From Myxococcales bacterium (GTDB lineage Bacteria; Myxococcota_A; UBA9042): a stretch of DNA of 12,056 nucleotides. Of the stretch, positions 1-11,509 are shown piece after piece. Each line of letters begins with the position of its first letter. The stretch's first letter is position 1. The position numbers were made by a program, and so were the translations under genes. A model generated the notes under the pieces. The model had not been told where the DNA came from, did not search any database, and saw nothing but the letters and a program-made list of their open reading frames with translations. The stretch lies in NCBI GenBank assembly GCA_037441385.1, contig JBBISH010000158.1, forward strand, positions 1-12,056, given 5' to 3'.

Positions 1-144
1 CGCCGCACCCCGCGCCGCACCCCGCGCCGCACCCCGCGCCGCACCCCGCGCCGCACCCTGCGCCGCACTCCGGGCCGCACTCCGCATCGCACGACGCCCC
101 GCATCGCGTGCCGCATGAGACGGCGCACCCGGCGACCCACGATG
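1..144 (+). repeat. 12-bp coding tandem repeat CGCCGCACCCCG, degenerating to the right
   Basis: Four perfect units at 1-48, a one-mismatch unit at 49-60, then increasingly diverged 12-nt units to about 144 that keep a His codon every fourth codon. The array probably continues left of the window. Confidence 0.95.
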
Positions 145-860
145 GCGGCGAGCACACCAAGACTGCCGGGCCGGCTGCGGATCCCGCGGGCCCGCACCTT
201 GGCAGCGACGGCGGCGGACCTGCCGCAGCCGGGCCACATGACGCAGGCGGAATTACGGAATCCCACTTGGGCGACGCCTTGGCGCCGCACGCGTCAGCAT
301 ATGCGGGAGGCCCGGCTGTGGCGTTGGAGCCCAGCCTGACCTCGATGGACGCCTACCGGGCTGCAGCCGGAGTCGCGGCGGGTAGCGTTGGGGCCCCAAC
401 GGGTGGGGCGTCTGTCAACCCGCGGTTGGCCAACGAACTCGACTTGCGTGGCCTGTCGCGGACGCCGTCGGCCATCGCGCCCACCCCGGTGCCCATGGAC
501 GACGCCCACCACGGCACGGAAAGTAGCGGGGGCGAACGCGATCCAACCGGCCTCCACTTGGGCATACCGCAGATTGGGACGCCACAGGTTCACTCGGTTC
601 ACGTTGCGGCGGACGCGCTTGCGGCGCCCCATCTTGCGCCGGTGCCCGAGTTGCCGCACGTACCCGACTTGACGCATGACGGCGACTTGCGACCGACCCC
701 GCTCCCCAGTGGTCACCACAGTTTTGGGCCCATCGATACAGATCTTGACTTTGGCGATCACGATCGCGGGCTCATCGTCGACCACGGCGGCGCTGGACAT
801 GGGGAACACGTTGGCGCGGACCTTGGCAGCGACGATGCACATGACCACCATGGCTTGTGA
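1..860 (+). CDS. Partial (5'-truncated) His/Pro/Gly/Asp-rich low-complexity protein, probably disordered; positional and compositional analogue of IniB/Rv0340-type proteins
   Basis: The frame of the 108..860 ORF is open from position 3: (PHPA)5-PHSG-PHSA-SHDA-PHRV-PHET-AHPA-THDG..., so the GTG at 108 is probably internal. I count 34 His in 285 residues. It ends ...SDDAHDHHGL, TGA 858-860. Third codon positions are mostly G/C. The IniB-like label rests only on composition and position next to an IniC-like gene. Confidence 0.7.
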   Translation, partial: PHPAPHPAPHPAPHPAPHPAPHSGPHSASHDAPHRVPHETAHPATHDGGEHTKTAGPAADPAGPHLGSDGGGPAAAGPHDAGGITESHLGDALAPHASAYAGGPAVALEPSLTSMDAYRAAAGVAAGSVGAPTGGASVNPRLANELDLRGLSRTPSAIAPTPVPMDDAHHGTESSGGERDPTGLHLGIPQIGTPQVHSVHVAADALAAPHLAPVPELPHVPDLTHDGDLRPTPLPSGHHSFGPIDTDLDFGDHDRGLIVDHGGAGHGEHVGADLGSDDAHDHHGL

Positions 861-958: not shown

Positions 959-2638
959 ATGCGGTTGGCGTTTACCCTTGACGACTACCAGCGTGCGGTC
1001 GAGTCGTTTGCCCGGCGGCTGCCCGATTTGCTGGCGCGGACGTCCGAAACGGCCGACTTGGCGGTTGATGTCGAGCGCTTGGCCATCGCCGAGACGCTGC
1101 GCGCCCGCTTTACCGTCGCCGTGGTCGGCCAGATGCGTGCTGGCAAATCGACGCTGCTCAACGCCTTGATTGGCCGCGACTTGGCGCCGACCGGCATCAC
1201 CGAGACTACCGCGACGGTCAACTGGTTTCGCTGGGACCCCGGCGAGCGCACGCAGGCGTTTCGCGTGCACTGGGCCGACGGCAGCGAGGCCGACTTCCCG
1301 CTGGCCGCCATCGCCGACTGGTTGCACGCCGGGGCCCACACCGCCACCACGCGGTGGCTCGACTTCTTTAGTTCGTCCGCGTTCTTGCAGACGGCCTTCC
1401 TGGTCGATACACCGGGCACCCGCAGCACTCTGGATCGCCACGAGCAGGCCGCGCACAGTTTTGTCGAGGGCGAGGCCGCCAGCGGTCGGGCCGACGCGAT
1501 CTTGTACGTGGTCAACCCCGTGGCGCGCGAGAGTGACCGCGACCTGCTGGCGCAGTTTGGCGACCTGACGCGGATGGCGGGCGCCAGCGTGCACAACAGC
1601 ATCGCCGTGGTGCAGAAGTGGGAGCACCTGGACCAGGGCCCGTGGCAGTCGGCCGACCCCGAGGCGGAGATTGCCCGCAAGTGCGCCCACATGTTCGAGC
1701 AGCTGCGCACCCAGGTCGCGGCGGTGGTGCCGGCGAGCGGGATGTTGGCGCGCTGTGCGGCGGACCCGGCCAACGGTCCGGCGTGGGAAGTCCTGGCGCG
1801 CATGGCCGCCCAGTGCGACGACGACGATTTCGAGGTGCTGACCGATTCGGAGGACCTGTTCTGTGAAGCAGACGAGGTGTTTGCCGGTGGCGTGCCCAGC
1901 CAGTTGGAGCGGCAGGCAGTGGTGCGGCAGATCCCCTGGCCGGCGGTGCGGCTGAGTCTGCGCGAGGCGCGAAGGCGGCGCCTGGGCGATGCGGCGGCGC
2001 TGCTGGGTCGGGTCCGCGCGCTGAGCGGCATCGACGCGCTGGCGCAGCTGCTGGGCGAGCGCTTCTTGAAGCAGGCGGCGCTCATCAAGGCCAACACCGT
2101 GTTGCGGCGGGCGTGGCTGCCGTGCCAAGTGGCGCTGGCCCGTTTGGGCGCCACGGATCAGCACCTGCGCGACGAACTGGGCCACTGCCAGGCGCTGCGG
2201 CAACGCCTAGCTGCGGTCGCCGATGCACCGCTGCGGGGCGAGCTCGACGTCTTCGTCAGCGCCCGCGAACTCGAGCTGCGCGCCGCCGTCCAGCGGGTCC
2301 GCGAACTGCGGGCCGACCTGGATCAAGTGCGCGAGGAGGCGCTGCGCAACCACGAGGCCCTGGACGGCGACTTGCGGACCATCGGCCTCTTGCTCGAGAC
2401 CCCGGGTCTTTCGCCCGCGGAGCGAGGCATGGCGCTGCAGGTCTGTGGCCGTCAGGGGCACGCCATCGCCAGCCGCCTGGGCCTGCCGGCCGACGCGCCC
2501 ATGGCGGTGCTCGTCGAAACGGCGGAGGAACGACTTGCCTGGGCCCAGGCCCGCAGTGGTCGCGGCGCGCGCCACGGGCCGATCTTTGCCCATATCGCCG
2601 AGCGGCTGGGGCAGATGCTCGAAGCGTTGGAGGCGTAG
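959..2638 (+). CDS. Bacterial dynamin-like GTPase (Dynamin_N domain), IniC-like, 559 aa
   Basis: G1 GQMRAGKST (from 1127), G2 region APTGITETTATVNWFR, G3 DTPG (1406-1417), atypical G4 QKWE (1613-1624). The segments VVPASGMLA and SGIDALAQLLGERFLKQAALIKANTVL resemble mycobacterial IniC as I recall it. Helical/coiled-coil C-terminal half with no clear TM segment. Confidence 0.9.
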   Translation: MRLAFTLDDYQRAVESFARRLPDLLARTSETADLAVDVERLAIAETLRARFTVAVVGQMRAGKSTLLNALIGRDLAPTGITETTATVNWFRWDPGERTQAFRVHWADGSEADFPLAAIADWLHAGAHTATTRWLDFFSSSAFLQTAFLVDTPGTRSTLDRHEQAAHSFVEGEAASGRADAILYVVNPVARESDRDLLAQFGDLTRMAGASVHNSIAVVQKWEHLDQGPWQSADPEAEIARKCAHMFEQLRTQVAAVVPASGMLARCAADPANGPAWEVLARMAAQCDDDDFEVLTDSEDLFCEADEVFAGGVPSQLERQAVVRQIPWPAVRLSLREARRRRLGDAAALLGRVRALSGIDALAQLLGERFLKQAALIKANTVLRRAWLPCQVALARLGATDQHLRDELGHCQALRQRLAAVADAPLRGELDVFVSARELELRAAVQRVRELRADLDQVREEALRNHEALDGDLRTIGLLLETPGLSPAERGMALQVCGRQGHAIASRLGLPADAPMAVLVETAEERLAWAQARSGRGARHGPIFAHIAERLGQMLEALEA

Positions 2639-3730
2639 ATGCCATCGCCCACCGCCCGCATCGCCATCGACTTTGGCACTACCCGCACCAAGGCCGCCTA
2701 CCTGGACCCGCAGACTGGCCGGGCGCGGATGGTAATGCTGGGGCACGGCGTGCCGACGCTGCCGTCGCTGTTCTTCCTGGAGCGTGGCCAGCCGCCGCTG
2801 CTCGGTTACGAGGCCGAGGCCTGGATCGAGCGCGAGCCGGCCGGTGCCGTGCGGGTCCTGAAGCGCCGGCTTCGCGAGGTCCGCGTGCGGGCCGGTCGCA
2901 CCGAGATTTCGCCGACCGAGCTGCTGGGCCTGTTGCTCGCCCGCATCCGGCAGCGGGTGGGCGAGGAGGTCACGGCCTTTGGCGGCGTGATGCCGGACGA
3001 GGTGGTGCTGACCCTGCCGGCGGCGGGCTCGGGCGCTGGGCCCAACGTCGAGAAGGTGATGCACGATGCGGCCAAGGAGGCTGGCTTTGCCAAGGTGACG
3101 CTGGTCTCCGAGCCCGAGGCCGCGGCCCTGGCCTACGTCCGCGACGCTGGCGCCCAGGCCCCGGACCTGCTGGTGGTGCTCGACTGCGGCGGCGGCACGG
3201 TGGACTGGACCTGTCTGCAGCGCCGGGAGGGACGGCTTGTCCCGATGACCGAGTGCCCGCCCGGCGGCGACGACAAGGTGGGTGGCGAGTTCGTCGATGA
3301 CGAGTTGCTTGCCGTAGTGCGGGCGCGCGTGGACCAGAGCGGCGACGAGGCGGCGGCGACGGAGCTGGAGCGGCGGCAAGAGGCGCTGGTCGGCCATCTG
3401 CGCGGGCTGCGCGAGCGGTTCTGCCTGGGCCGCGGTCGGCAAGTGGCGGCGGGCGATGCGCTGCACTTGGGTGGTTTGACGGTGGCCCTGGGTGCCGAGG
3501 AGGTGCGGCTGGTCGTCGAGCGGCGGTTCGTCGACCAGGTGTGCCTGGGCTTTGGCCGGTACTTGGAGAGTGTGCGGCGACATGGGGGTGTGGCGGAACC
3601 GACAGTGTTGTTGGTGGGTGGCGCGGCGCGGATGCTTGGGTTGCGGGAGGCGTTGCAGGAGCGGTGTGGGTGTCGGCCGGTCGGCTGGGAGGAGAGTGAC
3701 TTTGCGCCGGTTTTGGGGGCGGCGGGGGTG
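2639..3730 (+). repeat. Copy 1 of a ~1.09-kb duplicated Hsp70-NBD coding module (paralogue at 5051..6140)
   Basis: Similarity starts exactly at the ATG (ATGCCATCGCC.ACCGCCCGCATCGCCATCGACTTTGGCAC) and ends shortly after CCGGTTTTGGGGGCGGC (PVLGAA). 70 of the first 80 residues are identical by manual count. Confidence 0.95.
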
Positions 3731-4870
3731 GGGGTTGAGGGGCTGAGATCCGCGGAAGACCCGATGCCCAGGGAAGAGGACACGGTTGAGACAGCCAAGC
3801 CGCCGACGCAAAAGGCGTCGGTCGCAGTCGAGGAGCAGCCCGCAACCGACAATCCGGAGGCGCTCGCAAAGGAACCTGTCATCGACGAACGCCTGCCGGA
3901 GATGGTGGCTCTGCGCCAGGTGCCGCCGCAGCACAAGCCGGCAGAGGGCGACGATTCCACCTTGACCGCACGGGCCAGCGAGACGCCAGGCAAGGCCGCA
4001 CCGCGACGGAGATGGATGTGGATCGCCTTGGTCCTCGTGGGCGCAACGCTCCTGGCCCATCAGGCTGGTCGGGTGTTGGCCGAGATCATGGCTAGGGTCA
4101 TCACGCAGGCCGATGCCAGTCAGACGCAATGGGAACGGGAGGTCGAGACTTCGGTGGCTGAGGCGGCTCCAGCAGCGGCGCCGGCGCCGGCAGTGGTGGT
4201 CGATGCGGCCGCAGCGCCCGTCCAGCAACTGGTGCCGACGGCCGATGTGGTCGAGCGGAGCGTGGGGGAGTCGGATGTGACGGTGGTGCCTGCCGAGGCT
4301 GCGGCGCCCCATGGTCCGGTCGAACTGAGCGATGCGCAGAAGGAGGCGGTGAAGCTGGCGAGCTTGGCTGAGAAGGCGAGCACCGCCAAGCTGAGGGTGT
4401 TGTACCTGAAGAAGGCCATCGAGAAGGACCCGGGGGAGCGGCAGTACAAGACGGCGCTTCGCAAGGCCGAGGCAGACCTGGAGGCGCAGACGCCGGTCGT
4501 GGCAAAGCAGGCGCCGGATGTGGCAGGGCCAACGGTGAAGATCAACGGCCACGAGTGGCAACGCGGGGACGCGGAGCGGCGGATGGACTGGACTGAAGCC
4601 AAAGCGTACTGCGCCGAGTTGAACTTGGCGGGTGGCGGCTGGCGGCTGCCGACCTTGGAGGAGTTGAAGGGGCTCATCGACAAAGGCCAGCCGACCTCGC
4701 CGAGCATCGTCACGGCCTTGCGGGCCACGACGCCGTCAGCATTTAGTGGCTACTGGTCCGGCGCGCACGCGTTGTCCGCGCTGGACCAAGCCTGGGGAGT
4801 CGACTTCAGCTGGGGCAACAGCTACTTCTATGACGACTGGCGCAAGAACCGCGTACGGTGCGTACGCTGA
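2639..4870 (+). CDS. Hsp70-family ATPase domain + linker + single TM helix + Ala/Pro/Val stalk + TPR-like helical hairpin + C-terminal Lcl/DUF1566 (C-type lectin fold) domain, 743 aa
   Basis: Hsp70 NBD motifs in order: IAIDFGTTRT (phosphate-1), LKRRL, VVLTLPA, SEPEAAALAY, LDCGGGTVD (phosphate-2), GGEFVDDEL, VLLVGGAARM (adenosine), APVLGAA. No substrate-binding domain follows. TM: PRRR-WMWIALVLVGATLLA (from 4013). TPR-like: YLKKAIEKDPGERQYKTAL. Lcl motifs: WQRG..MDWTEAKAYCAELNLAGGGWRLPTLEELKGL, YWS, AWGVDF..G, VRCVR*. The ATG directly follows the upstream TAG, with GGAGG just before. Confidence 0.92.
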   Translation: MPSPTARIAIDFGTTRTKAAYLDPQTGRARMVMLGHGVPTLPSLFFLERGQPPLLGYEAEAWIEREPAGAVRVLKRRLREVRVRAGRTEISPTELLGLLLARIRQRVGEEVTAFGGVMPDEVVLTLPAAGSGAGPNVEKVMHDAAKEAGFAKVTLVSEPEAAALAYVRDAGAQAPDLLVVLDCGGGTVDWTCLQRREGRLVPMTECPPGGDDKVGGEFVDDELLAVVRARVDQSGDEAAATELERRQEALVGHLRGLRERFCLGRGRQVAAGDALHLGGLTVALGAEEVRLVVERRFVDQVCLGFGRYLESVRRHGGVAEPTVLLVGGAARMLGLREALQERCGCRPVGWEESDFAPVLGAAGVGVEGLRSAEDPMPREEDTVETAKPPTQKASVAVEEQPATDNPEALAKEPVIDERLPEMVALRQVPPQHKPAEGDDSTLTARASETPGKAAPRRRWMWIALVLVGATLLAHQAGRVLAEIMARVITQADASQTQWEREVETSVAEAAPAAAPAPAVVVDAAAAPVQQLVPTADVVERSVGESDVTVVPAEAAAPHGPVELSDAQKEAVKLASLAEKASTAKLRVLYLKKAIEKDPGERQYKTALRKAEADLEAQTPVVAKQAPDVAGPTVKINGHEWQRGDAERRMDWTEAKAYCAELNLAGGGWRLPTLEELKGLIDKGQPTSPSIVTALRATTPSAFSGYWSGAHALSALDQAWGVDFSWGNSYFYDDWRKNRVRCVR

Positions 4871-4888
4871 GCCCCGACGATTCGACAC

Positions 4889-4904
4889 GCTCCGCGAGCG
4901 GAGC
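4889..4904. other. Short GC-rich inverted repeat GCTCCG-CGAG-CGGAGC just downstream of the Lcl-domain gene
   Basis: Perfect 6-bp stem with a 4-nt loop, starting 18 nt after the stop at 4870. No following U-tract, so not a classical intrinsic terminator. Confidence 0.5.
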
Positions 4905-5014
4905 AAACCCAAAAGCATCCTGCTGGCCGGCGATCCGCCGGGATCTCGACCCCTGTCAAGTCGATTTTCCCTGGAACCGGTGGGTAGCAGCAGGCTTTCG
5001 TGCCCGCTCTGCCC

Positions 5015-5043
5015 TTGCCTCGCACCCCAAACCGCAGCACAAT
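5015..5043 (+). promoter_or_regulatory. Putative sigma70-type promoter for a leaderless transcript of Hsp70 copy 2
   Basis: TTGCCT (5015-5020), 17-nt spacer, CACAAT (5038-5043), then 7 nt to the ATG at 5051. There is no Shine-Dalgarno sequence before this ATG. Confidence 0.45.
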
Positions 5044-5050
5044 CCCGGCC

Positions 5051-6140
5051 ATGCCATCGCCAACCGCCCGCATCGCCATCGACTTTGGCACCACCCGCAC
5101 CAAGGCCGCCTACCTGGACCCGCAGACCGGTCGGGCGCGCCTCTTGACCCTTGGGCACGGTACCCCGGCGATGCCGTCGCTGTTCTTCCTGCAGCCCGAC
5201 CAACCGCCGCTGCTGGGCCACGAAGCCGAGGCCTGGATCGAGCGCGAGCCGGCCGGTGCGGTGCGGGTGTTGAAGCGCCGGCTGCGCGAGCGGCAGACCG
5301 CGCCGGTGGCACCCGCATGTCGCCGACCGAGCTGCTGGCCGCCCTCTTGCTCCGCATCCGTGAGCGGGTTGGCGACGAGGTCCCGGCCTTTGCCGGCCAG
5401 GCGCCCGACGAAGTGGTGCTGACGTTGCCAGCCGCGGGTTCGGGCGCCGGGCCGCACGTCGAAAAGGTCCTGCGCGACGCGGCGCACGAGGCCGGCTTTG
5501 CCAAGGTGACCCTCATCTCCGAGCCCGAAGCGGCGGCCCTGGCCTATGCCCGCGAGGTGGGTGAGCAAGCACCGGAGCTGCTGGTTGTCCTCGACTGCGG
5601 CGGGGGCACGGTGGACTGGACCTGCCTGCAACGCCAGGGCGGGCGCCTCGTGCCGATGACCGAGTGCCCGCCCGGCGGCGACGACAAGGTGGGGGGCGAG
5701 TACGTCGACGATGAGCTGCTGGCAGTGGTGCGCGAGCGGGTCGACCAGAGCGGCGATGCGACGGCGATGGCCGACTTGGAGCGGCGGCAAGAGGCGCTGG
5801 TTGGGCATTTGCGCGGGCTGCGCGAGCGGTTCTGCATCGGTCGCGGCCAGCGGGTGGCGACGGGCGACACGCTGCACCTGGGAACGCTGGCGGTGGCGCT
5901 GACACCGGCGGACGTCCAGGCGGTGCTGGGTGAACGCTTCGTCGATCAGGTGTGCCTGGGCTTTGGTCGATACTTGCAGAGCGTGCGGCAGCACAGCGGT
6001 GTCGCAGCCCCCACCGTGCTGCTGGTGGGCGGGGCGGCGCGGATGCTCGGGCTCAGGGAGGCCTTGCAGGAACGCTGCGCGTGCAAGCCGGTGTGGTGGG
6101 AGAATAGTGACTTTGCACCGGTTTTGGGGGCGGCTTGGGT
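5051..6140 (+). repeat. Copy 2 of the duplicated Hsp70-NBD coding module
   Basis: Colinear with 2639..3730, with long identical stretches such as CCGATGACCGAGTGCCCGCCCGGCGGCGACGACAAGGTGGG and GGAGCGGCGGCAAGAGGCGCTGGT. Confidence 0.95.
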
Positions 6141-7281
6141 TGGGCTGGTCGCGGCCGCGGCCGCACAGCGAGAGGCAGGCGAAGCGCCCACACCAGAGAA
6201 GGAGGATGCGGCCCAGGTGCCGGTCGCGACGGCCCACGGGACGGAGCAGGCTGCTGCAGAGGAACCGCGCGAGGTTGCGGGCGAGCCGCCGAACGAGGGT
6301 GAGTCCTTCGCCGACGAGGTGCATCGGGAGCCGCCTGCTCCCGTTGCGCGGCGAGTTGGTCGTCCATGGCTGGTGGCGCTTGGGTTGGTGGGGACCGCAG
6401 CGCTGGGGATGACGGGTTTGATGAAGTGGTCGAAACCGATGGAGCCGCCGCGCGCGTGGGTTGCGCCGGGGCCAGCCCTGGGCCTGGGCGCCGAGCCCCA
6501 AGATGCGAACGGGTCGCCGTCCACGGCGCGGGACTCTGGCACTGGCACCGCGGAGGCGGTGGCGGACCGGGGCGACCGACCGAGCGCCACGGACACCGCC
6601 TTGGCACGACCAGAGCCGTCGGCCCAGCCAGCCGAAACCAAACCGCAACTCGACGCCACGATTTGGGTGGTGCTGCCGGCCAGTCCCGGCGACGGCCGTG
6701 CCTTGCGCGCAATCATGCGACAACCCGTCACGTTCGCCGAGTACGCCGAATGTGCCGGCGCCGGTGCCTGCCCGCCCGCACATTGGGAGGACGACTACTG
6801 CTTTGATTTGAACGGTAAAGTTCGACTTCCGCCCGAGACACGCCTGCCCAAGGCGCCCGCCGTATGCGTCGATTGGGACCAAGCGCGGGCTTGGTGCCGC
6901 TGGGCCGCGGGCAAGTCAGGCGTCGAAGCAAGTCGGGCGTCGCTTCCCGCCGCGTGGGATCTGCTCGACCTGCCGGCAGGCGCCGAGAAACCAGCGGCGG
7001 CAGAGGGCAACTGGATCACTTTCGAATGGGCTGAGGACTGTTGGGGCACGGCCGCCGCGCCGCCCGTGGGCCGCCGTCCTGTTCAAGACTGTGTGTTCGC
7101 CAAGGACGCGCCGTATGGCGAGCTGCCAGGGCGTCGCAAGACCCAAGTCCGGGTCGTTGGCAGTGGCTCGGCCCGCGAGAGCGCGCCCACCAACAGCGCG
7201 AGCAAGGATGTAGGGTTCAGGTGTGCCATTTGGGATCCAGACCTGGAGCCGGCCGGAAAGGGCCGACCGCGGGAGCCGTGA
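5051..7281 (+). pseudogene. Second Hsp70-NBD + TM + FGE-sulfatase (SUMF1/EgtB/PvdO-like, C-type lectin fold) protein, interrupted by a 1-nt frameshift near 5297 (true pseudogene or sequencing error); 743 aa if restored
   Basis: The N-terminus MPSPTARIAIDFGTT...LKRRLRERQ is in the frame of ORF 5000..5422. The rest (RAGGTRMSPTELL...) is in the frame of ORF 4858..7281. Alignment to copy 1 (GAG GTC CGC GTG CGG GCC GGT vs GAG CGG CAG AC- CGC GCC GGT) shows one missing base. TM: RRVGRP-WLVALGLVGTAALGMTGLM (~6367-6423). FGE-like motifs: VTFAEYAECAGAGAC, PAVCVDWDQARAWCRW, GN....EWAEDCW, VGFRCA. Confidence 0.88.
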
Positions 7282-7433: not shown

Positions 7434-8771
7434 ATGAGCGGTGGGGTCGACAAAACCAGCCGCGGCCTTGCCTGGCGCGCCACGCATCTAGCCGCCCTGC
7501 CGTCTCTGCTGCTTGCGGTCGTGGTGGCTGTCGCACCGGCGCCGGCAACCGCGGCCTGCAAGACAGACCAATCGTGCCAAAGTTGTGCAGACCGACTGCG
7601 CGACAGGCACGGCTGCTGCCCCGGCTGCTGGTATGTGTCGGACGCAGAGCGGGACGCCCAGCGCGCGAAACAGCGCGCCACGGAGGAAGCGGAGAGGGCG
7701 CGGGCAGCCGAGGAGCGTGCTCGCGCCGAAAGCGAGCGCGCTGAGCGACAGCGCGCGGTGGCCGAAGAACGTCGCCGTGCCGCCCGCGAGGCCGATCGAC
7801 GCGAGGAGGCGGCGCGCAAAGAGGCCGAGTCCGAGCGACGCGCGCGCGAGGAGGCCGAGTCGCGGAGCAAGGCGGCGACGGAGGCCGCCAAGCGCGAAGA
7901 GTTGGCTCGCCGTCGCGCCGAAGAACGCGCCAAGCAGGTCGAGGCCGAGCGCGAGCAGGAGCGCTTGAAGCTCGCGGCGAAGGCGGAGGAGAGGGCGGCT
8001 GCAGAAGCCACCGCGGCCCGCGAGGCGAGGTTGCTGGCCAAGTGCCAGCGCGACGAGGAAGATGCCGACTGCGTGGCGCTCCAAAAAGACTGTCACGACC
8101 GAGGCTTCCTGCGCGACGATGAGCTGTGCAAAGCACTTGGCTGGGCGGATCCGGACGACATGTGGAGCGGTCTAGTGCCGCGGGGCGTCGGAATTGGCGG
8201 GTTTCATGCCGAGTTGGGAACAGGGTTCCCGCTTCCAACTGCGGAAACCGTGCAACCCAAGCTCGTGGCGACCTTGTTGCAGCTACGGGGTCTCCAGCTT
8301 GCCGAGCCCTTCTTGTTGGGCCACGTTGGCTTGGGCTACTGGGGGAATCTGGCGTTTTCAGTCATCGGGAGCCAACCTTGGATTCTTGGCGCGGGAGCTG
8401 GGTTTGGCGTTGGCCCCAGCCTATTCTTGGGCAGTCACGTGGTCTTGTGCGTCGGGCCGGGTCTGGTGGCGAACGGCACTTCGGAAGGGGATCCCTACTT
8501 CGCGAGCACATTGGGTGTGATGCCGCGGGCACTGGTGCTCTACCGCTCGGTGTCTCGGACCTACCTGTACGTCAGTGTCCAGCCGACGTGGGACTTGGCC
8601 GGGCGCACAAAAGCAGCCAGTTTCGCGGATGAGTGGCGCTTCGATGTCGCTGCCGGCACCCGCGACTTCGAACTCGGTCTGTGGTTTGATGACATCCCTC
8701 ACGCCTACGCAACGTTTGGGCTCAGCTTTGGTTTCGGCGACCACGAGGCTTTTGTGGGTAGGAATCGCTGA
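7434..8771 (+). CDS. Secreted/outer-membrane hypothetical protein: signal peptide, Cys-rich N-terminal module, long E/R/A/K charged helix, 4-Cys module, C-terminal beta-barrel-like domain (~445 aa)
   Basis: GGAG at 7423-7426 precedes ATG 7434. Signal peptide-like LAALPSLLLAVVVAVAPAPATA, then CKTDQSCQSC...GCCPGC (6 Cys), about 130 aa of ERARAAEERARAESERAERQR-type helix, KCQRDEEDADCVALQKDC..C, then Gly/aromatic alternating strands (LLGHVGLGYW, ILGAGAGFGVG, TYLYVSVQPTW, WRFDVAAG, FELGLWF, YATFGLSFGF). An alternative in-frame GTG at 7278 overlaps the upstream stop. The ORF-track start at 7041 overlaps the upstream gene and is unlikely. Confidence 0.75.
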   Translation: MSGGVDKTSRGLAWRATHLAALPSLLLAVVVAVAPAPATAACKTDQSCQSCADRLRDRHGCCPGCWYVSDAERDAQRAKQRATEEAERARAAEERARAESERAERQRAVAEERRRAAREADRREEAARKEAESERRAREEAESRSKAATEAAKREELARRRAEERAKQVEAEREQERLKLAAKAEERAAAEATAAREARLLAKCQRDEEDADCVALQKDCHDRGFLRDDELCKALGWADPDDMWSGLVPRGVGIGGFHAELGTGFPLPTAETVQPKLVATLLQLRGLQLAEPFLLGHVGLGYWGNLAFSVIGSQPWILGAGAGFGVGPSLFLGSHVVLCVGPGLVANGTSEGDPYFASTLGVMPRALVLYRSVSRTYLYVSVQPTWDLAGRTKAASFADEWRFDVAAGTRDFELGLWFDDIPHAYATFGLSFGFGDHEAFVGRNR

Positions 8772-8913: not shown

Positions 8914-9513
8914 ATGAAGCGATGGACATCGATGACGGCGCGGACCCTGCTTCTGGCGTCTTGCAGCCCCTATGGGGCACCGCCCACATCCACGTCCCCC
9001 GTCGTCGCCGCACCGCCGGCACCTCTGTGTGCGCCCTTGGCGGCGGGGGCTAGCCATGCCACGCTGACGTATCACGTTGCTGCGCCCATCGCCGAGCCGA
9101 CTCCAGTGCCTACTGCCCAAGCCATGTCGGATCGCTTGATCGCCGCCGGAGCGTCGGGGGGCGACTTGCAGGTGTCCTTGGCGTGGAATGGCGCAAACGA
9201 CCTTGACCTGCATGTGGCGATGCCGTGCGGCAAAGAGTTGTCGTTTCGCGATGAGCACGACTGCGGCGGGCGGCTCGACGTCGACGCCAACTCGCGGCGC
9301 ATCGTGGACGATCCGGTCGAAAACGCCTTTTGGCCGGCCGGGGGCGCCGAGGCGGGCAACTACGTGGTGTCTGTGGAGCACTACAACCGGAACGATGGGC
9401 CCCTCGCCGTCAGCTACGCCGTCCGGGTCGTGATGGGCGGACGCTCGCAGACCTACACGGGGACGGTGCTTGCCAAGGAGCAGGTCGAGGTGGTTCGATT
9501 CGACTGGCGGTAG
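8914..9513 (+). CDS. Probable lipoprotein with a C-terminal DUF2135/YfaP-like beta-sandwich domain (~199 aa)
   Basis: GAGGG precedes ATG 8914. MKRWTSMTARTLLLASC gives a lipobox-like LASC with Cys17, although the h-region is short. A Pro/Ala/Thr tether follows, then LQVSLAWNGANDLDLHVAMPCG...GGRLDVDAN...PVENAFW...GNYVVSVEHY, the pattern typical of DUF2135/YfaP domains. The start codon is less certain than the domain. Confidence 0.8.
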   Translation: MKRWTSMTARTLLLASCSPYGAPPTSTSPVVAAPPAPLCAPLAAGASHATLTYHVAAPIAEPTPVPTAQAMSDRLIAAGASGGDLQVSLAWNGANDLDLHVAMPCGKELSFRDEHDCGGRLDVDANSRRIVDDPVENAFWPAGGAEAGNYVVSVEHYNRNDGPLAVSYAVRVVMGGRSQTYTGTVLAKEQVEVVRFDWR

Positions 9514-9553
9514 CCCTTCACCCTACTTGGCTCAGCCGCGCACGAGGCCGCCT

Positions 9554-11509
9554 ATGGATTTTGCCATCAACACGCAACTGGACGACCTTGCGGCGCGGGC
9601 GCTCAACTGCGCGCGCTCGGCCGGTGTGGCGGTCACCGACGACTTGGCCCAAGCGTTGGCGGCGCCGATTCCGTCGGCCGGCGCAACCGTGGCGGTGGTG
9701 GGCGAAATCAAGAAGGGCAAGTCGTCGATCGTCAATACGCTGCTGCGTCATCCGCACGCGTCGCCGGTCAGCTCGGATGTCGCAACGTCCGTGGCCTTGC
9801 GCTTCCGGCATGGCCCGGCGGCGACGGTAGTGTCGTTCTACCAGGACGAGGCTGGCGTTGCCGCGCCGCCCCTCACCATCCTACCTAGTCAGGTCGCCGA
9901 TTTTGCCACAGAGGCCGGAAACCCGGGCAATGTCAAATGGGTCGACCTGCTCGACGCCACGCTCCCGGCGCCGCTGCTGGCGCGCGGCCTGATCCTGCTC
10001 GACACGCCGGGCTTGGGCGGCTTGCACCGCAATCACGCTGCCGTGACGTGGCGCCACCTGCACAGCGTGGACGCCGTGCTATTCGTGACGGACTCGGTTG
10101 AGGCCGTGTTTTCGCGGCACGAGCTGGAATTCTTGCGACGAATCGCCGCGCTTGGCAAGTTCGTTGCCTTTGTGCAGGCCAAGTGCGACCTGGCGAGCCG
10201 CCAGCAGATCGAAGGCTTCCGCGACCGCAACCTTGCCATCCTTGCCGAGGCGCTGGGCCGCGATCCCCAGCAAGTTCCGTATTTCTTGACGAGCACGCAC
10301 CTTGCCCAGCGAGCGCTGGAGCGACCACAGCTCCGGCAGAAGTACTGGTCGAGCAGCGGTTTTGCCGACCTGGAGCAGTTTCTGGTGGGCCAGTTGCTGC
10401 CGGCCCGCGGCCGCGCCGCGCAGTGGAATCGGGTGCGCCAGGCGACTCTGCTGGCTCGGTCGGCGGCAGCCGTGGCCCGCGAACGCCATGGCCAAAACGA
10501 CCAACAGACGGTTGCGGCGCTGCAGCAAGCCCACGAAGCCGTGCGCTCGCGCGTCGAGCAGGTCAGCGAGCGGATTGAACGTGGTTTTGCCAAAGTGCAC
10601 GAGGCGTGGCTGTCGGGTATGGCCACCCTGCAGGAGCAAGCCCTGACCAAGCTGCAGGCCGATTTGGCGCCCGGCGCGGTGGGGCCGGTCTGGAAGACGG
10701 TGTCTGCCGAACTGGAGCTGTTGCTGGCCGAGCCGCGCACGGCCGTGGAGCGCGCCGAGCAACTGCTTGATCGGGCGCGCGAACTGGCGACAGAGCGCGT
10801 CGTGGCGGCGGCAACCTCGGCGCGCAGCGAGGCGTTGCGTCAACTGGCCAAGGCGGCGAGCGAACTGGGCGACACCGCGCAAGCTCCCGCGAAGGTCGAC
10901 ACCCACGAGGTGCGCGCCCTGCCCAAGGACCGCGTCTTCGACGTTCGCCAACTGACCGACCCGGAGGTGAGCCGGCTCGACCACGTCCTCACCAGCCTGG
11001 GCCTGGCCGGCACGATTGCTACCATGGTCGGCGCCGCCTTGCCGGGCGTAGGCTGGGTCGCCGGTGGCGCGGTCCTGGTGTGGATGACGCACCGGCGGAG
11101 CCACGCGGCGCAGCAGCGGCAGGCTACCGTCTTGCGAGCGCAGCTCATCGACTTGCTGCAGCGCGAGTTGCGCTCTGCCGCCATCGCTGGTCAGCAGGCC
11201 GTCGCTAGCCTGTTGGGCCAGCTTGGCCGGGAAGGCGCGCGGCTCCTGCGGGGCATCGTGGAGCAGCAGCGATTGCAGGCCGAGGCTGACCGTGCGTGGC
11301 TGCAGCGCGAGCGCGAGCGGGTCGTGCAGGGGCAGGAACAGAGCCAGCGCGACCTGGTGGCGACGTTGGCGACGGCCGCAGCCATCGAAGCCACGGCCAA
11401 GGCGCTGGCCGAGCAGATGCAGCGCCGGCAAGTCAGCTCGCCAGAGGGGTTGGGGGCGTCCAACGACGCGGCCGAGCCGACGCAGGCTGGTACCGTTTCA
11501 GAGCCGTGA
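9554..11509 (+). CDS. Bacterial dynamin-like GTPase, IniA-like, with a hydrophobic membrane-inserting segment (~651 aa)
   Basis: GAGG precedes ATG 9554; the ORF-track start at 9470 overlaps the upstream gene. G1 GEIKKGKSS (from 9701), G2 DVATSV, G3 DTPG in LLARGLILLDTPGLGGL (10001-10012), DAVLFVTD, G4 AKCD (10178-10189), SGFADL. Long helical neck/trunk and a hydrophobic stretch VLTSLGLAGTIATMVGAALPGVGWVAGGAVLVWM (~10985-11086) followed by HRR. Confidence 0.92.
   Translation: MDFAINTQLDDLAARALNCARSAGVAVTDDLAQALAAPIPSAGATVAVVGEIKKGKSSIVNTLLRHPHASPVSSDVATSVALRFRHGPAATVVSFYQDEAGVAAPPLTILPSQVADFATEAGNPGNVKWVDLLDATLPAPLLARGLILLDTPGLGGLHRNHAAVTWRHLHSVDAVLFVTDSVEAVFSRHELEFLRRIAALGKFVAFVQAKCDLASRQQIEGFRDRNLAILAEALGRDPQQVPYFLTSTHLAQRALERPQLRQKYWSSSGFADLEQFLVGQLLPARGRAAQWNRVRQATLLARSAAAVARERHGQNDQQTVAALQQAHEAVRSRVEQVSERIERGFAKVHEAWLSGMATLQEQALTKLQADLAPGAVGPVWKTVSAELELLLAEPRTAVERAEQLLDRARELATERVVAAATSARSEALRQLAKAASELGDTAQAPAKVDTHEVRALPKDRVFDVRQLTDPEVSRLDHVLTSLGLAGTIATMVGAALPGVGWVAGGAVLVWMTHRRSHAAQQRQATVLRAQLIDLLQRELRSAAIAGQQAVASLLGQLGREGARLLRGIVEQQRLQAEADRAWLQRERERVVQGQEQSQRDLVATLATAAAIEATAKALAEQMQRRQVSSPEGLGASNDAAEPTQAGTVSEP

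Follow-up and report, generated by a model that had tools for sequence, protein, structure and literature searches.

We analysed a 12,056-base stretch of DNA from a Myxococcales bacterium (contig JBBISH010000158.1), referred to here as the window. The window is an entire contig of an assembly of 6.6 Mb in 221 contigs that is 91% complete. It has a G+C content of ~69% and carries a single run of genes on the + strand, which is backed by third-position GC. Two of these genes encode Hsp70-like paralogues (paralogue 1 and paralogue 2), and two encode dynamin-like proteins (DLP-A and DLP-B). The paralogues carry an Hsp70-type nucleotide-binding domain (NBD) with no match to the Hsp70 substrate-binding domain (SBD), and we asked what such ATPases may do beside a pair of dynamin-like GTPases. 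The features that bear on this question are as follows.

959..2638, + strand: DLP-B, a dynamin-like GTPase of 559 amino acids without a hydrophobic segment (Pfam Dynamin_N, 1.4e-17)
2639..4870, + strand: paralogue 1, Hsp70-like, 743 amino acids (Pfam, NCBIfam, hydropathy and PDB profile alignment)
4871..5050, no strand: spacer between the two paralogues (codon-position GC flat, 0.66/0.64/0.66)
5051..5293, + strand: first 81 NBD codons of paralogue 2, from ATG 5051, with the phosphate-1 motif IAIDFGTT and LKRRL
5291..5316, + strand: site of a 1-nucleotide deletion in paralogue 2 relative to paralogue 1 (DNA alignment)
5305..7281, + strand: remainder of paralogue 2 in the other frame, with its stop at 7281
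9551..11509, + strand: DLP-A, an IniA/BDLP-type dynamin-like GTPase of 652 amino acids from its ATG (Pfam Dynamin_N, 1.3e-13)

Domain architecture of the two Hsp70-like paralogues

Paralogue 1 begins with its NBD (2639-3724), followed by an acidic, Pro-rich linker (3725-4012), a hydrophobic helix (4013-4072), an Ala/Val-rich spacer and an Lcl_C domain (~4550-4867). Pfam HSP70 matched residues 78-233 (3.8e-11), with a secondary match to MreB_Mbl (7.7e-7). The NCBIfam HscA model matched residues 81-349 (1e-19). This match was sub-threshold and confined to the NBD (70.6 bits against a cut-off of 708.55), and the DnaK model (48.4 against 822.55) and the YegD-type model NF008673 (27 against 331) also fell below their cut-offs. 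In both paralogues the Pfam HSP70 match ended at or before profile position 376 of 599, with no interdomain linker, SBD or lid matched. Identity to the long Hsp70 genes of the same genome was 29-31%.

An NBD profile of 70 family members aligned with residues 1-348 of the DnaK NBD (2v7y, E = 1.2e-38), and the alignment stopped at the last NBD helix, which is the APVLGAA of paralogue 1. We observed that K75 (in LKRRL) and E158 (in SEPEAAA) of paralogue 1 correspond to DnaK K70 and E171, and that D11, D182, T187, D189 and G327-G328 are also kept, leaving all catalytic residues intact. The Hsp70-type features of this NBD comprise the catalytic Asp, the Lys70 and Glu171 equivalents, the phosphate-2 motif DxGGGT and the adenosine motif. 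An initial annotation of this DNA had picked out the same Lys and Glu, had ended the homology at APVLGAA and had argued that the proteins are not canonical chaperones, and our alignments agreed with it on all of these points. Judged from these comparisons, paralogue 1 has a complete Hsp70-type NBD and no SBD.

The linker of paralogue 1 is 96 amino acids long (14% each of E, A and P; net charge -6) and ends in PRRR, and that of paralogue 2 is 76 amino acids long (net charge -8) and ends in ARRVGR. Each is followed by one hydrophobic helix, so that the acidic linker, Arg-rich stretch and single helix described earlier were recovered in both proteins. In paralogue 1 the hydrophobic segment spans residues 459-480 and has a marginal Kyte-Doolittle 19-mer score of 1.61, with five Lys or Arg residues in the 15 positions flanking it on the N side and two on the C side. 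In paralogue 2 the remainder of the NBD runs to 6135 and the helix lies at 6364-6429, with a score of 1.72. The lectin fold and the N-in/C-out orientation assigned to these proteins rest on Pfam domains, hydropathy and the NBD's need for cytosolic ATP.

The two C-termini differ. Lcl_C (PF07603) matched residues 638-743 of paralogue 1 over profile positions 10-117 of 117 (1.1e-18; 68.1 bits against a cut-off of 34.9), and the isolated C-terminus scored 71.5 bits. FGE-sulfatase (PF03781) matched paralogue 2 at 6709-7008 with 31.7-34.5 bits against a cut-off of 23.3, covering only profile positions 38-124 of 255. Thus the Lcl assignment made at the outset was clear for paralogue 1, and the FGE assignment passed its cut-off in paralogue 2 over part of the profile only. 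PDB sequence searches with the outer domains of both paralogues gave nothing significant; the top match for paralogue 2 was PvdO (E = 0.18). Multiple alignment revealed a motif common to the Lcl_C and FGE-type ends, around (S/D)W.(E/D)A.A(Y/F)...(R/S)LPT.(E/A)EW. From its sequence, the C-terminus of paralogue 2 is best treated as a putative divergent binding fold and not as an enzyme.

Both paralogues had been taken for intact genes, which holds for paralogue 1 and not for paralogue 2. The true N-terminus of paralogue 2, MPSPTARIAIDFGTT...LKRRLRE, begins at ATG 5051 in a frame that differs from that of the remainder (MSPTELL... to the stop at 7281), and the 5051 frame continues out of register to a stop at 5420-5422. 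One base is missing relative to paralogue 1. The DNA alignment places the loss after 5298, where the exact site is arbitrary within the divergent stretch 5291-5316. The open reading frame (ORF) listed from GTG 4858 has ~150 codons of nonsense. Positions 4858-5050 are without coding-type codon-position GC and both pieces of paralogue 2 have coding-type third-position GC; the listed start is an artefact. All Hsp70 motifs of paralogue 2 are present, divided over two frames, and the gene-caller product (P0007; 654 amino acids from MSPTELL) is without the phosphate-1 loop and the K70 equivalent.

The 81-codon piece of paralogue 2 matched NCBIfam HscA at 3e-4. Compared with paralogue 1, this piece was 87.5% identical in amino acids, with a dN/dS of 0.205 over 80 codons, and the remaining NBD was 80% identical, with a dN/dS of 0.208 over 280 codons. 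A dN/dS of ~0.2 on both pieces points to purifying selection and to a recent break. A 453-nucleotide contig (depth 11.2) from another assembly, of run X1, matched 5230-5682 without a difference or indel; run X1 may be the source sample, and its contig set is not independent of the original reads. The unitig that contains the deletion has this depth and belongs to paralogue 2 only (it possibly comes from the same reads), which makes an assembly artefact unlikely. Mis-threading between the paralogues cannot explain a deletion in sequence unique to paralogue 2. Nothing in paralogue 2 points to programmed frameshifting. These data show a recent frameshift in paralogue 2, which is probably inactive in the population sampled.

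An NBD family with variable C-termini and a dynamin pair

A phmmer search of 1.84 billion representative proteins gave 164 matches at E <= 1e-30. Among the best 150 of these 164, 20 matched the Lcl_C part only and 130 matched the NBD, which was almost always N-terminal in those 130. The family signature (IDFGT[ST]RTK, LDCGGGTxDW and CPPGGD, with the NBD at the N-terminus) is present in both paralogues. The catalytic positions (K75, E158, D11, D182, T187, D189 and G327-G328 in paralogue 1) were at least 90% conserved in 70 family members.

We took a census of C-terminal domains with Pfam on 119 representatives (E <= 1e-8 for 73 proteins and E <= 1e-10 for 46). Sel1 was found in 13, FGE-sulfatase in 8, TPR in 6, Dynamin_N fusions in 6, WD40 in 4 and beta-helix in 2; Lcl_C, H-lectin, CobW, an EF-Tu-like GTPase and a Zn-ribbon were found once each, and the remainder had nothing recognisable. 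The 21 locus proteins added ankyrin, cyclophilin with FGE-sulfatase, a pectinesterase-like domain and Lcl_C straight after the NBD. Some members (P0016, P0070, P0074 and P0112) consist of the NBD only. In every family protein scanned, the Pfam HSP70 match went no further than ~position 381 of 599, apart from that of the N-terminal half of P0159. This protein (999 amino acids) has a full canonical Hsp70 including the SBD (profile 1-544 of 599) in front of the family NBD, and P0123 (1031 amino acids) has a second Hsp70 unit ahead of it.

On an NBD tree of 123 rows (IQ-TREE, quick mode), the 12 rows of the FGE class needed 12 changes, at least 7 of them forced by well-supported branches. The Sel1 class likewise needed 12 changes for 12 rows (at least 9 forced), and only the dynamin fusions clustered (8 rows, 4 changes). 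Paralogues 1 and 2 are sisters (support 100) yet end in different domains. Tandem NBD genes were present in 9 of the 44 metagenome loci, in a locus with three copies (L009) and in L017, where the copies end in Lcl_C and in Sel1. The ESM Atlas returned only generic NBD-only 'Hsp70 family protein' clusters, and a cluster look-up of eight relatives gave singletons with uninformative names. The NBD is the constant head of a distinct, little-studied family in which the C-terminal module has been swapped repeatedly.

Partial family NBD genes were seen in L014, L031 and L032, with open frames of 363, 200 and 79 amino acids, respectively. The L032 fragment abuts an oppositely oriented, truncated DLP-B. 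It seems that decay or rearrangement of the module is common, or else that these three loci contain assembly faults.

The hydrophobic helix is less widespread than the NBD. By a crude hydropathy measure, only 35 of 115 long representatives had a hydrophobic 19-mer with a score of 1.6 or higher C-terminal to the NBD, and several of these segments were C-terminal tail anchors. Both paralogues fall in a clade of nine rows (support 99) together with P0008-P0012, P0037 and P0038, most of which have a hydrophobic segment after a long linker. In most members, among them P0014, P0084 and L017:5968-7548, FGE-sulfatase or Lcl_C comes straight after the NBD with no room for a helix, and the C-terminal domains of such helix-less members are presumably cytoplasmic. 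The transmembrane layout is a feature of a small clade and not of the NBD family.

The DLP-A family profile matched IniA (6j72) at 3.2e-42 over profile positions 11-630 of 633 (chain residues 6-599) and Nostoc BDLP (2j68) at 2.6e-34, a full-length similarity that includes the GTPase, neck and trunk. A TTG upstream of DLP-A, at 9470, is also open, and in the resulting 679-amino-acid form a hydrophobic paddle-like segment occupies residues 519-537. The DLP-B family profile matched a Campylobacter DLP (5owv_C, 2.9e-19) and IniA (6.8e-11) in the GTPase region only; codon-position GC of DLP-B was 0.74/0.50/0.88. G1 (GxxxxGKS) and DTPG are invariant in both the DLP-A and DLP-B families. DLP-A keeps TKxD at the G4 position, where dynamins have (T/N)KxD and DLP-B and its relatives read HKWE, a difference that may reflect altered nucleotide handling in one partner.

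DLP-B ends in a TAG that is immediately followed by the ATG of paralogue 1, which points to translational coupling. The distance from the end of paralogue 2 to DLP-A, further downstream, is 2.3 kb. Third-position GC was 0.82-0.88 in paralogue 1, DLP-A and DLP-B, all of which are full-length open frames. Across 25 genome loci of the NBD family, both DLPs were present in 14, one DLP in 4 and none in 6 (three of these being contigs of <4.4 kb), and one locus was cut at a contig edge. A DLP was present in 24 of 44 metagenome loci. Fourteen of the metagenome loci extend 3.5 kb or more upstream of the NBD; of these 14, a DLP was present in 13, both DLPs in 11 and a C39-like gene in 10. The usual gene order is C39-like, DLP-A, DLP-B, NBD, and the DLP-B and NBD genes overlap by 4 nucleotides in L021 and L027. 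Dynamin_N lies C-terminal to the NBD in at least 6 of the 119 representatives and also in P0026-28. In P0097 the NBD is joined to a GTPase that is 39% identical to DLP-A over 254 amino acids (E = 9e-39). Members of the NBD family are encoded in synteny with a dynamin pair of the IniA/BDLP type, and some are fused to a dynamin.

The C39-like gene, usually the first of the module, encodes a protein of ~290-316 amino acids in which a domain resembling Peptidase_C39_2 and conserved Cys and His motifs are found (for example L021:5441-6313, L012:4908-5849, L030:6544-7494 and L019:2049-2933), and is of a cytoplasmic, papain type. The window ORF ahead of DLP-A (8575/8914-9513) is not homologous to it, and one query for a homologue in the 91%-complete genome returned none. 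The long disordered linkers of the NBD proteins could, speculatively, be substrates of this peptidase.

Candidate roles of the ATPases

Of the roles that we considered, that of a sensor or adaptor fits best with the combination of an intact NBD, shuffled binding-type C-termini, tandem copies that differ, and coupling or fusion to dynamins. We lean modestly towards the reading, from sequence comparison, that the SBD-less Hsp70-type ATPases act as sensor or adaptor subunits of the IniA/BDLP-type GTPase pair and are not folding chaperones. The dynamins are the strongest functional clue at this locus and were underplayed in the initial annotation.

For the proteins of this window, such a role would imply a cytoplasmic NBD that a single helix tethers to the inner membrane, with the Lcl_C or FGE-like (C-type-lectin-related) domain outside, where it would bind an envelope or foreign ligand. 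The state of the ligand would be passed to the NBD, and the ATP/ADP cycle of the NBD would control the recruitment, assembly or GTPase activation of DLP-A and DLP-B on the membrane. Membrane fission, repair or vesiculation could be the outcome. With tandem paralogues that differ in the outer domain, one dynamin pair would receive several inputs.

Several observations weigh against this role. The helix of paralogue 1 is marginal, with ~16 uncharged residues at a score of 1.61, and the closest same-genus relative, P0038, has no clear helix (1.24). Among the seven helix-bearing members of the clade, positive-inside bias was seen in five, with one tie and one opposite. Most family members are without a membrane helix, and transmembrane signalling therefore cannot be the general mechanism of the family. 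One of the two NBD copies in the window is frameshifted, and 6 of the 25 genome loci have no DLP. The window also departs from the usual module, with no C39-like peptidase and with DLP-A downstream behind two unrelated exported proteins. No PADLOC model was matched by P0001 or by either piece of paralogue 2.

A broader version of the sensor role is possible, and we put it forward only tentatively. Here the NBD would be the general nucleotide switch of a modular surveillance system built from the C39-like peptidase, the two dynamins and between one and three NBD sensors whose recognition domains can be exchanged. The recognition domain would have been moved across the membrane in clades such as that of the window, and the system would gate dynamin-driven membrane repair or abortive remodelling upon envelope damage or phage. 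If true, these proteins would be the first Hsp70-based transmembrane receptors.

Direct remodelling of the dynamins is a rather unlikely alternative. The NBD would use ATP to assemble or dismantle dynamin oligomers, loosely as Hsc70 acts in uncoating, and the C-terminal domain would only anchor or localise the protein without passing a signal. The strict retention of catalytic residues is compatible with this activity, as are the DLP fusion, the tight operon coupling and the existence of NBD-only members. About one third of the long members have a membrane anchor, and several of these are plain C-terminal tail anchors without an outer domain. Canonical Hsp70 remodelling, however, requires the SBD, which is absent here. 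Anchoring alone hardly explains the rapid, unclustered swapping of ligand-binding-type C-terminal modules, or why tandem copies are retained when only this module sets them apart.

An actin-like scaffold is improbable. Actin and Hsp70 share a fold, and secondary Pfam matches to MreB_Mbl reached 1e-19 in relatives, with FtsA or Alp7A matched in some members; an NBD that polymerised on the membrane like MreB, ParM or FtsA could give the dynamins a track or platform. Pfam nonetheless ranked HSP70 above these families in paralogue 1 and in most of the relatives scanned; P0166 is one of the rare exceptions. All 60 PDB matches listed were Hsp70-family chains, with DnaK the best (1.2e-38), and the Hsp70-specific equivalents of the catalytic Lys (K70) and Glu (E171) are conserved.

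We give slightly less weight still to an independent chaperone or holdase, in which the variable C-terminal domain would replace the SBD for clients of its own (for example envelope glycans or proteins) and the dynamin neighbourhood would reflect shared regulation only. The order of an NBD followed by a binding domain mimics Hsp70, P0159 fuses a full canonical Hsp70 to the family NBD, and a chaperone link is raised in the available part of a review on cyanobacterial DLPs (PMC5827413). In the window, however, the NBD and binding domain are predicted on opposite sides of the membrane with a disordered linker of 76-96 amino acids between them, and the lack of an Hsp70 interdomain linker motif makes Hsp70-type allosteric coupling implausible. 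The physical fusions to dynamins argue for a direct partnership.

Least probable of all is a degenerating remnant with neither copy functional: the frameshift of paralogue 2 (seen also in the second contig set, possibly from the same reads), the missing C39-like gene and rearranged gene order, the truncated family genes in L014, L031 and L032 and the presence of the family in only 2 of 37 genomes of the order are set against full-length paralogue 1, DLP-A and DLP-B genes with third-position GC of 0.82-0.88, a dN/dS between copies of ~0.2 and the intact catalytic residues of paralogue 1.

The sensor or adaptor role would bear on a wider question. Drug tolerance, the release of vesicles, the repair of membranes and defence against phages have all been connected with bacterial dynamins (IniA/IniC, DynA and LeoABC/Eleos). 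A conserved, sometimes fused, switch-type ATPase partner with interchangeable binding domains is a concrete candidate for the missing input that sets the time and place of their action, and would represent reuse of the Hsp70 ATPase domain outside protein folding. The module is present in the cultured strains Belnapia mucosa T6 (L012) and Aporhodopirellula aestuarii ICT_H3.1 (L027), which makes the idea directly testable.

Neighbouring genes, distribution and known systems

Three further genes lie in the window.

3..860, + strand: His/Pro/Gly/Asp-rich low-complexity ORF, open at its 5' end (translation)
7434..8771, + strand: orphan protein of 445 amino acids (open frame, third-position GC)
8914..9513, + strand: putative lipoprotein of 199 amino acids, starting MKRWTSMTARTLLLASC, with an LLLASC lipobox-like start

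The contig opens within a 12-nucleotide tandem repeat at 1-115 (9.6 copies), which encodes the PHPA repeats of the first ORF. This ORF matched no Pfam, NCBIfam or PADLOC family, and its sole relative, weakly matched by tblastn, precedes DLP-B in L032. A low-complexity repeat-protein gene in this position, upstream of DLP-B, presumably recalls iniB of iniBAC. The 445-amino-acid protein has an N-terminal hydrophobic segment, a Cys-rich stretch, a long Glu/Arg/Ala coiled-coil-like region that contains a 30-nucleotide repeat (7812-7887), and a Gly-rich C-terminal part. It matched no Pfam family at E up to 1, a homologue search was empty and there was no tblastn match in related loci. The putative lipoprotein matched no significant Pfam family; its C-terminal domain is common to 17 hypothetical proteins of ~300-340 amino acids. 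A promoter and terminator scan returned nothing in the intergenic regions of the window, including no terminator-like site in 4871-5050, and no Rfam family matched in the window.

The NBD family was present in only 2 of 37 genomes of the order at 1e-30, and in 2 of the 24 of good quality. We found no tblastn match to the NBD on plasmids (limit 1e-20) or phages (limit 1e-10), and viral contigs gave only two remote matches (20-21% identity). DLP-A matched the PADLOC LeoBC model at 3e-15 (residues 166-593); DLP-A-type proteins matched it over nearly their full length, down to 9e-25 in L010. DLP-B matched LeoA at 2e-11 in its N-terminal part only (residues 9-93). The Leo models have no curated cut-off, and these matches are weak. 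The PADLOC candidate model PDC-M61B was matched by 31 of 70 family NBDs (best 2e-13), and P0001 did not match it.

In seven loci examined, conflict-type neighbours included a type III restriction enzyme (L019:9408-11231) and a SocA/Panacea antitoxin (L030:15230-15859). An IetA-like ATPase and a GAP1-N2/GAP1-M protein lie beside the module at L027:13697-17759. These pointers to defence are few in number and uncontrolled, and the precedents of IniA and DynA point equally to envelope-stress repair. The module may serve such repair or anti-phage immunity, as in Eleos. In the open-access literature, taken without supplements, we found no paper that describes the architecture of the NBD family, its C39-like partner or the four-gene module.

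The window resembles iniBAC in that the DLP-A profile matches IniA over its whole length and each cluster has two dynamin-like GTPase genes. It differs in that the published iniBAC locus has no Hsp70-like component, whereas here two NBD genes lie between the DLPs, and in that DLP-B of the window matches solved DLPs in the GTPase domain only. The available part of one report states that IniA mediates membrane fission (PMC6715688), and the term 'Hsp70' occurs 0 times in the available parts of that and a second IniA/IniC paper (PMC10240201). Eleos (LeoA and LeoBC) is described in the accessible portion of a preprint as a two-gene dynamin-like defence system (bioRxiv 2022.12.12.520048). DLP-A-type proteins match LeoBC nearly end to end and DLP-B matches the N-terminal part of LeoA, but Eleos is without an Hsp70-like or peptidase component.

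Links between dynamins and chaperone-like genes have been noted before. In the part of the review available, the cyanobacterial DLP 'chaperone group' has a gene with a DnaK domain downstream, and a functional link was proposed (Jilly et al. 2018, PMC5827413). There the neighbour is treated as an Hsp70 chaperone, and the same part mentions no SBD loss, variable C-termini, anchoring or fusions. An excerpt of another study reports a DnaJ-like domain on the DLP adjoining Nostoc BDLP1 and a Sel1-type HcpA-like gene in the cj-dlp operon (Liu et al. 2018, PMC6104087).

Canonical Hsp70s (DnaK, HscA and HscC) and the NBD-only YegD of E. coli share the NBD fold class and catalytic residues with the paralogues. 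The paralogues differ from canonical Hsp70s in being without the interdomain linker, SBD and lid, and in scoring far below every NCBIfam cut-off. SBD-less HSP70 genes, along with HSP70 and GrpE, occur in DO-GTPase/GAP1 conflict systems according to the part of the source at hand (Kaur et al. 2020, PMC7159879). Here the GTPases are Dynamin_N/IniA-type with a DTPG motif. No GAP1 family matched in the window ORFs, although the Pfam GAP1-N2 and GAP1-M models do match L027:15009-17759, and neither GrpE nor DnaJ was matched by the window ORFs that were scanned. Membership in the DO-GTPase/GAP1 systems was ruled out by the lack of GAP1 and by the dynamin-type GTPases. Identity with the Hsp70-like CnuD of CoCoNuT was also ruled out, as CnuD keeps the NBD/SBD unit and pairs with McrB-type GTPases in the portion of its description available (PMC11090510).

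The C-terminal modules of the NBD family come from the same pool (WD40, TPR, Sel1 and FGE-sulfatase) as those of bacterial Ser/Thr kinases and metacaspases. The accessible part of a survey of bacterial metacaspases lists the same partner domains as commonest (PMC3501461), and an excerpt of a kinase-atlas preprint places FGE-sulfatase on one bacterial Ser/Thr kinase family. FGE-sulfatase and Lcl had originally been called common on fusions of such kinases to a membrane helix. In the window's own genome 0 of 16 FGE-sulfatase matches share an open frame, by coordinates, with any of the 71 kinase-domain matches. Neither paralogue matched Pkinase, and the 71 kinase-domain matches lie elsewhere. Some of the FGE-sulfatase matches of this genome lie in frames of 1000-1350 amino acids.

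In the window the head is an Hsp70 NBD instead of a kinase or metacaspase, and the likeness is an architectural analogy and not homology. The proposal that these proteins are receptor-like ATPases is thus partly supported, as an analogy. The NBD does occupy the head position of a sensor-type architecture, and the transmembrane layout, with a hydrophobic segment in 35 of 115 long representatives, is a clade feature. The paralogues of the window are a clade-specific variant of a dynamin-partner family, and one that is not unprecedented.

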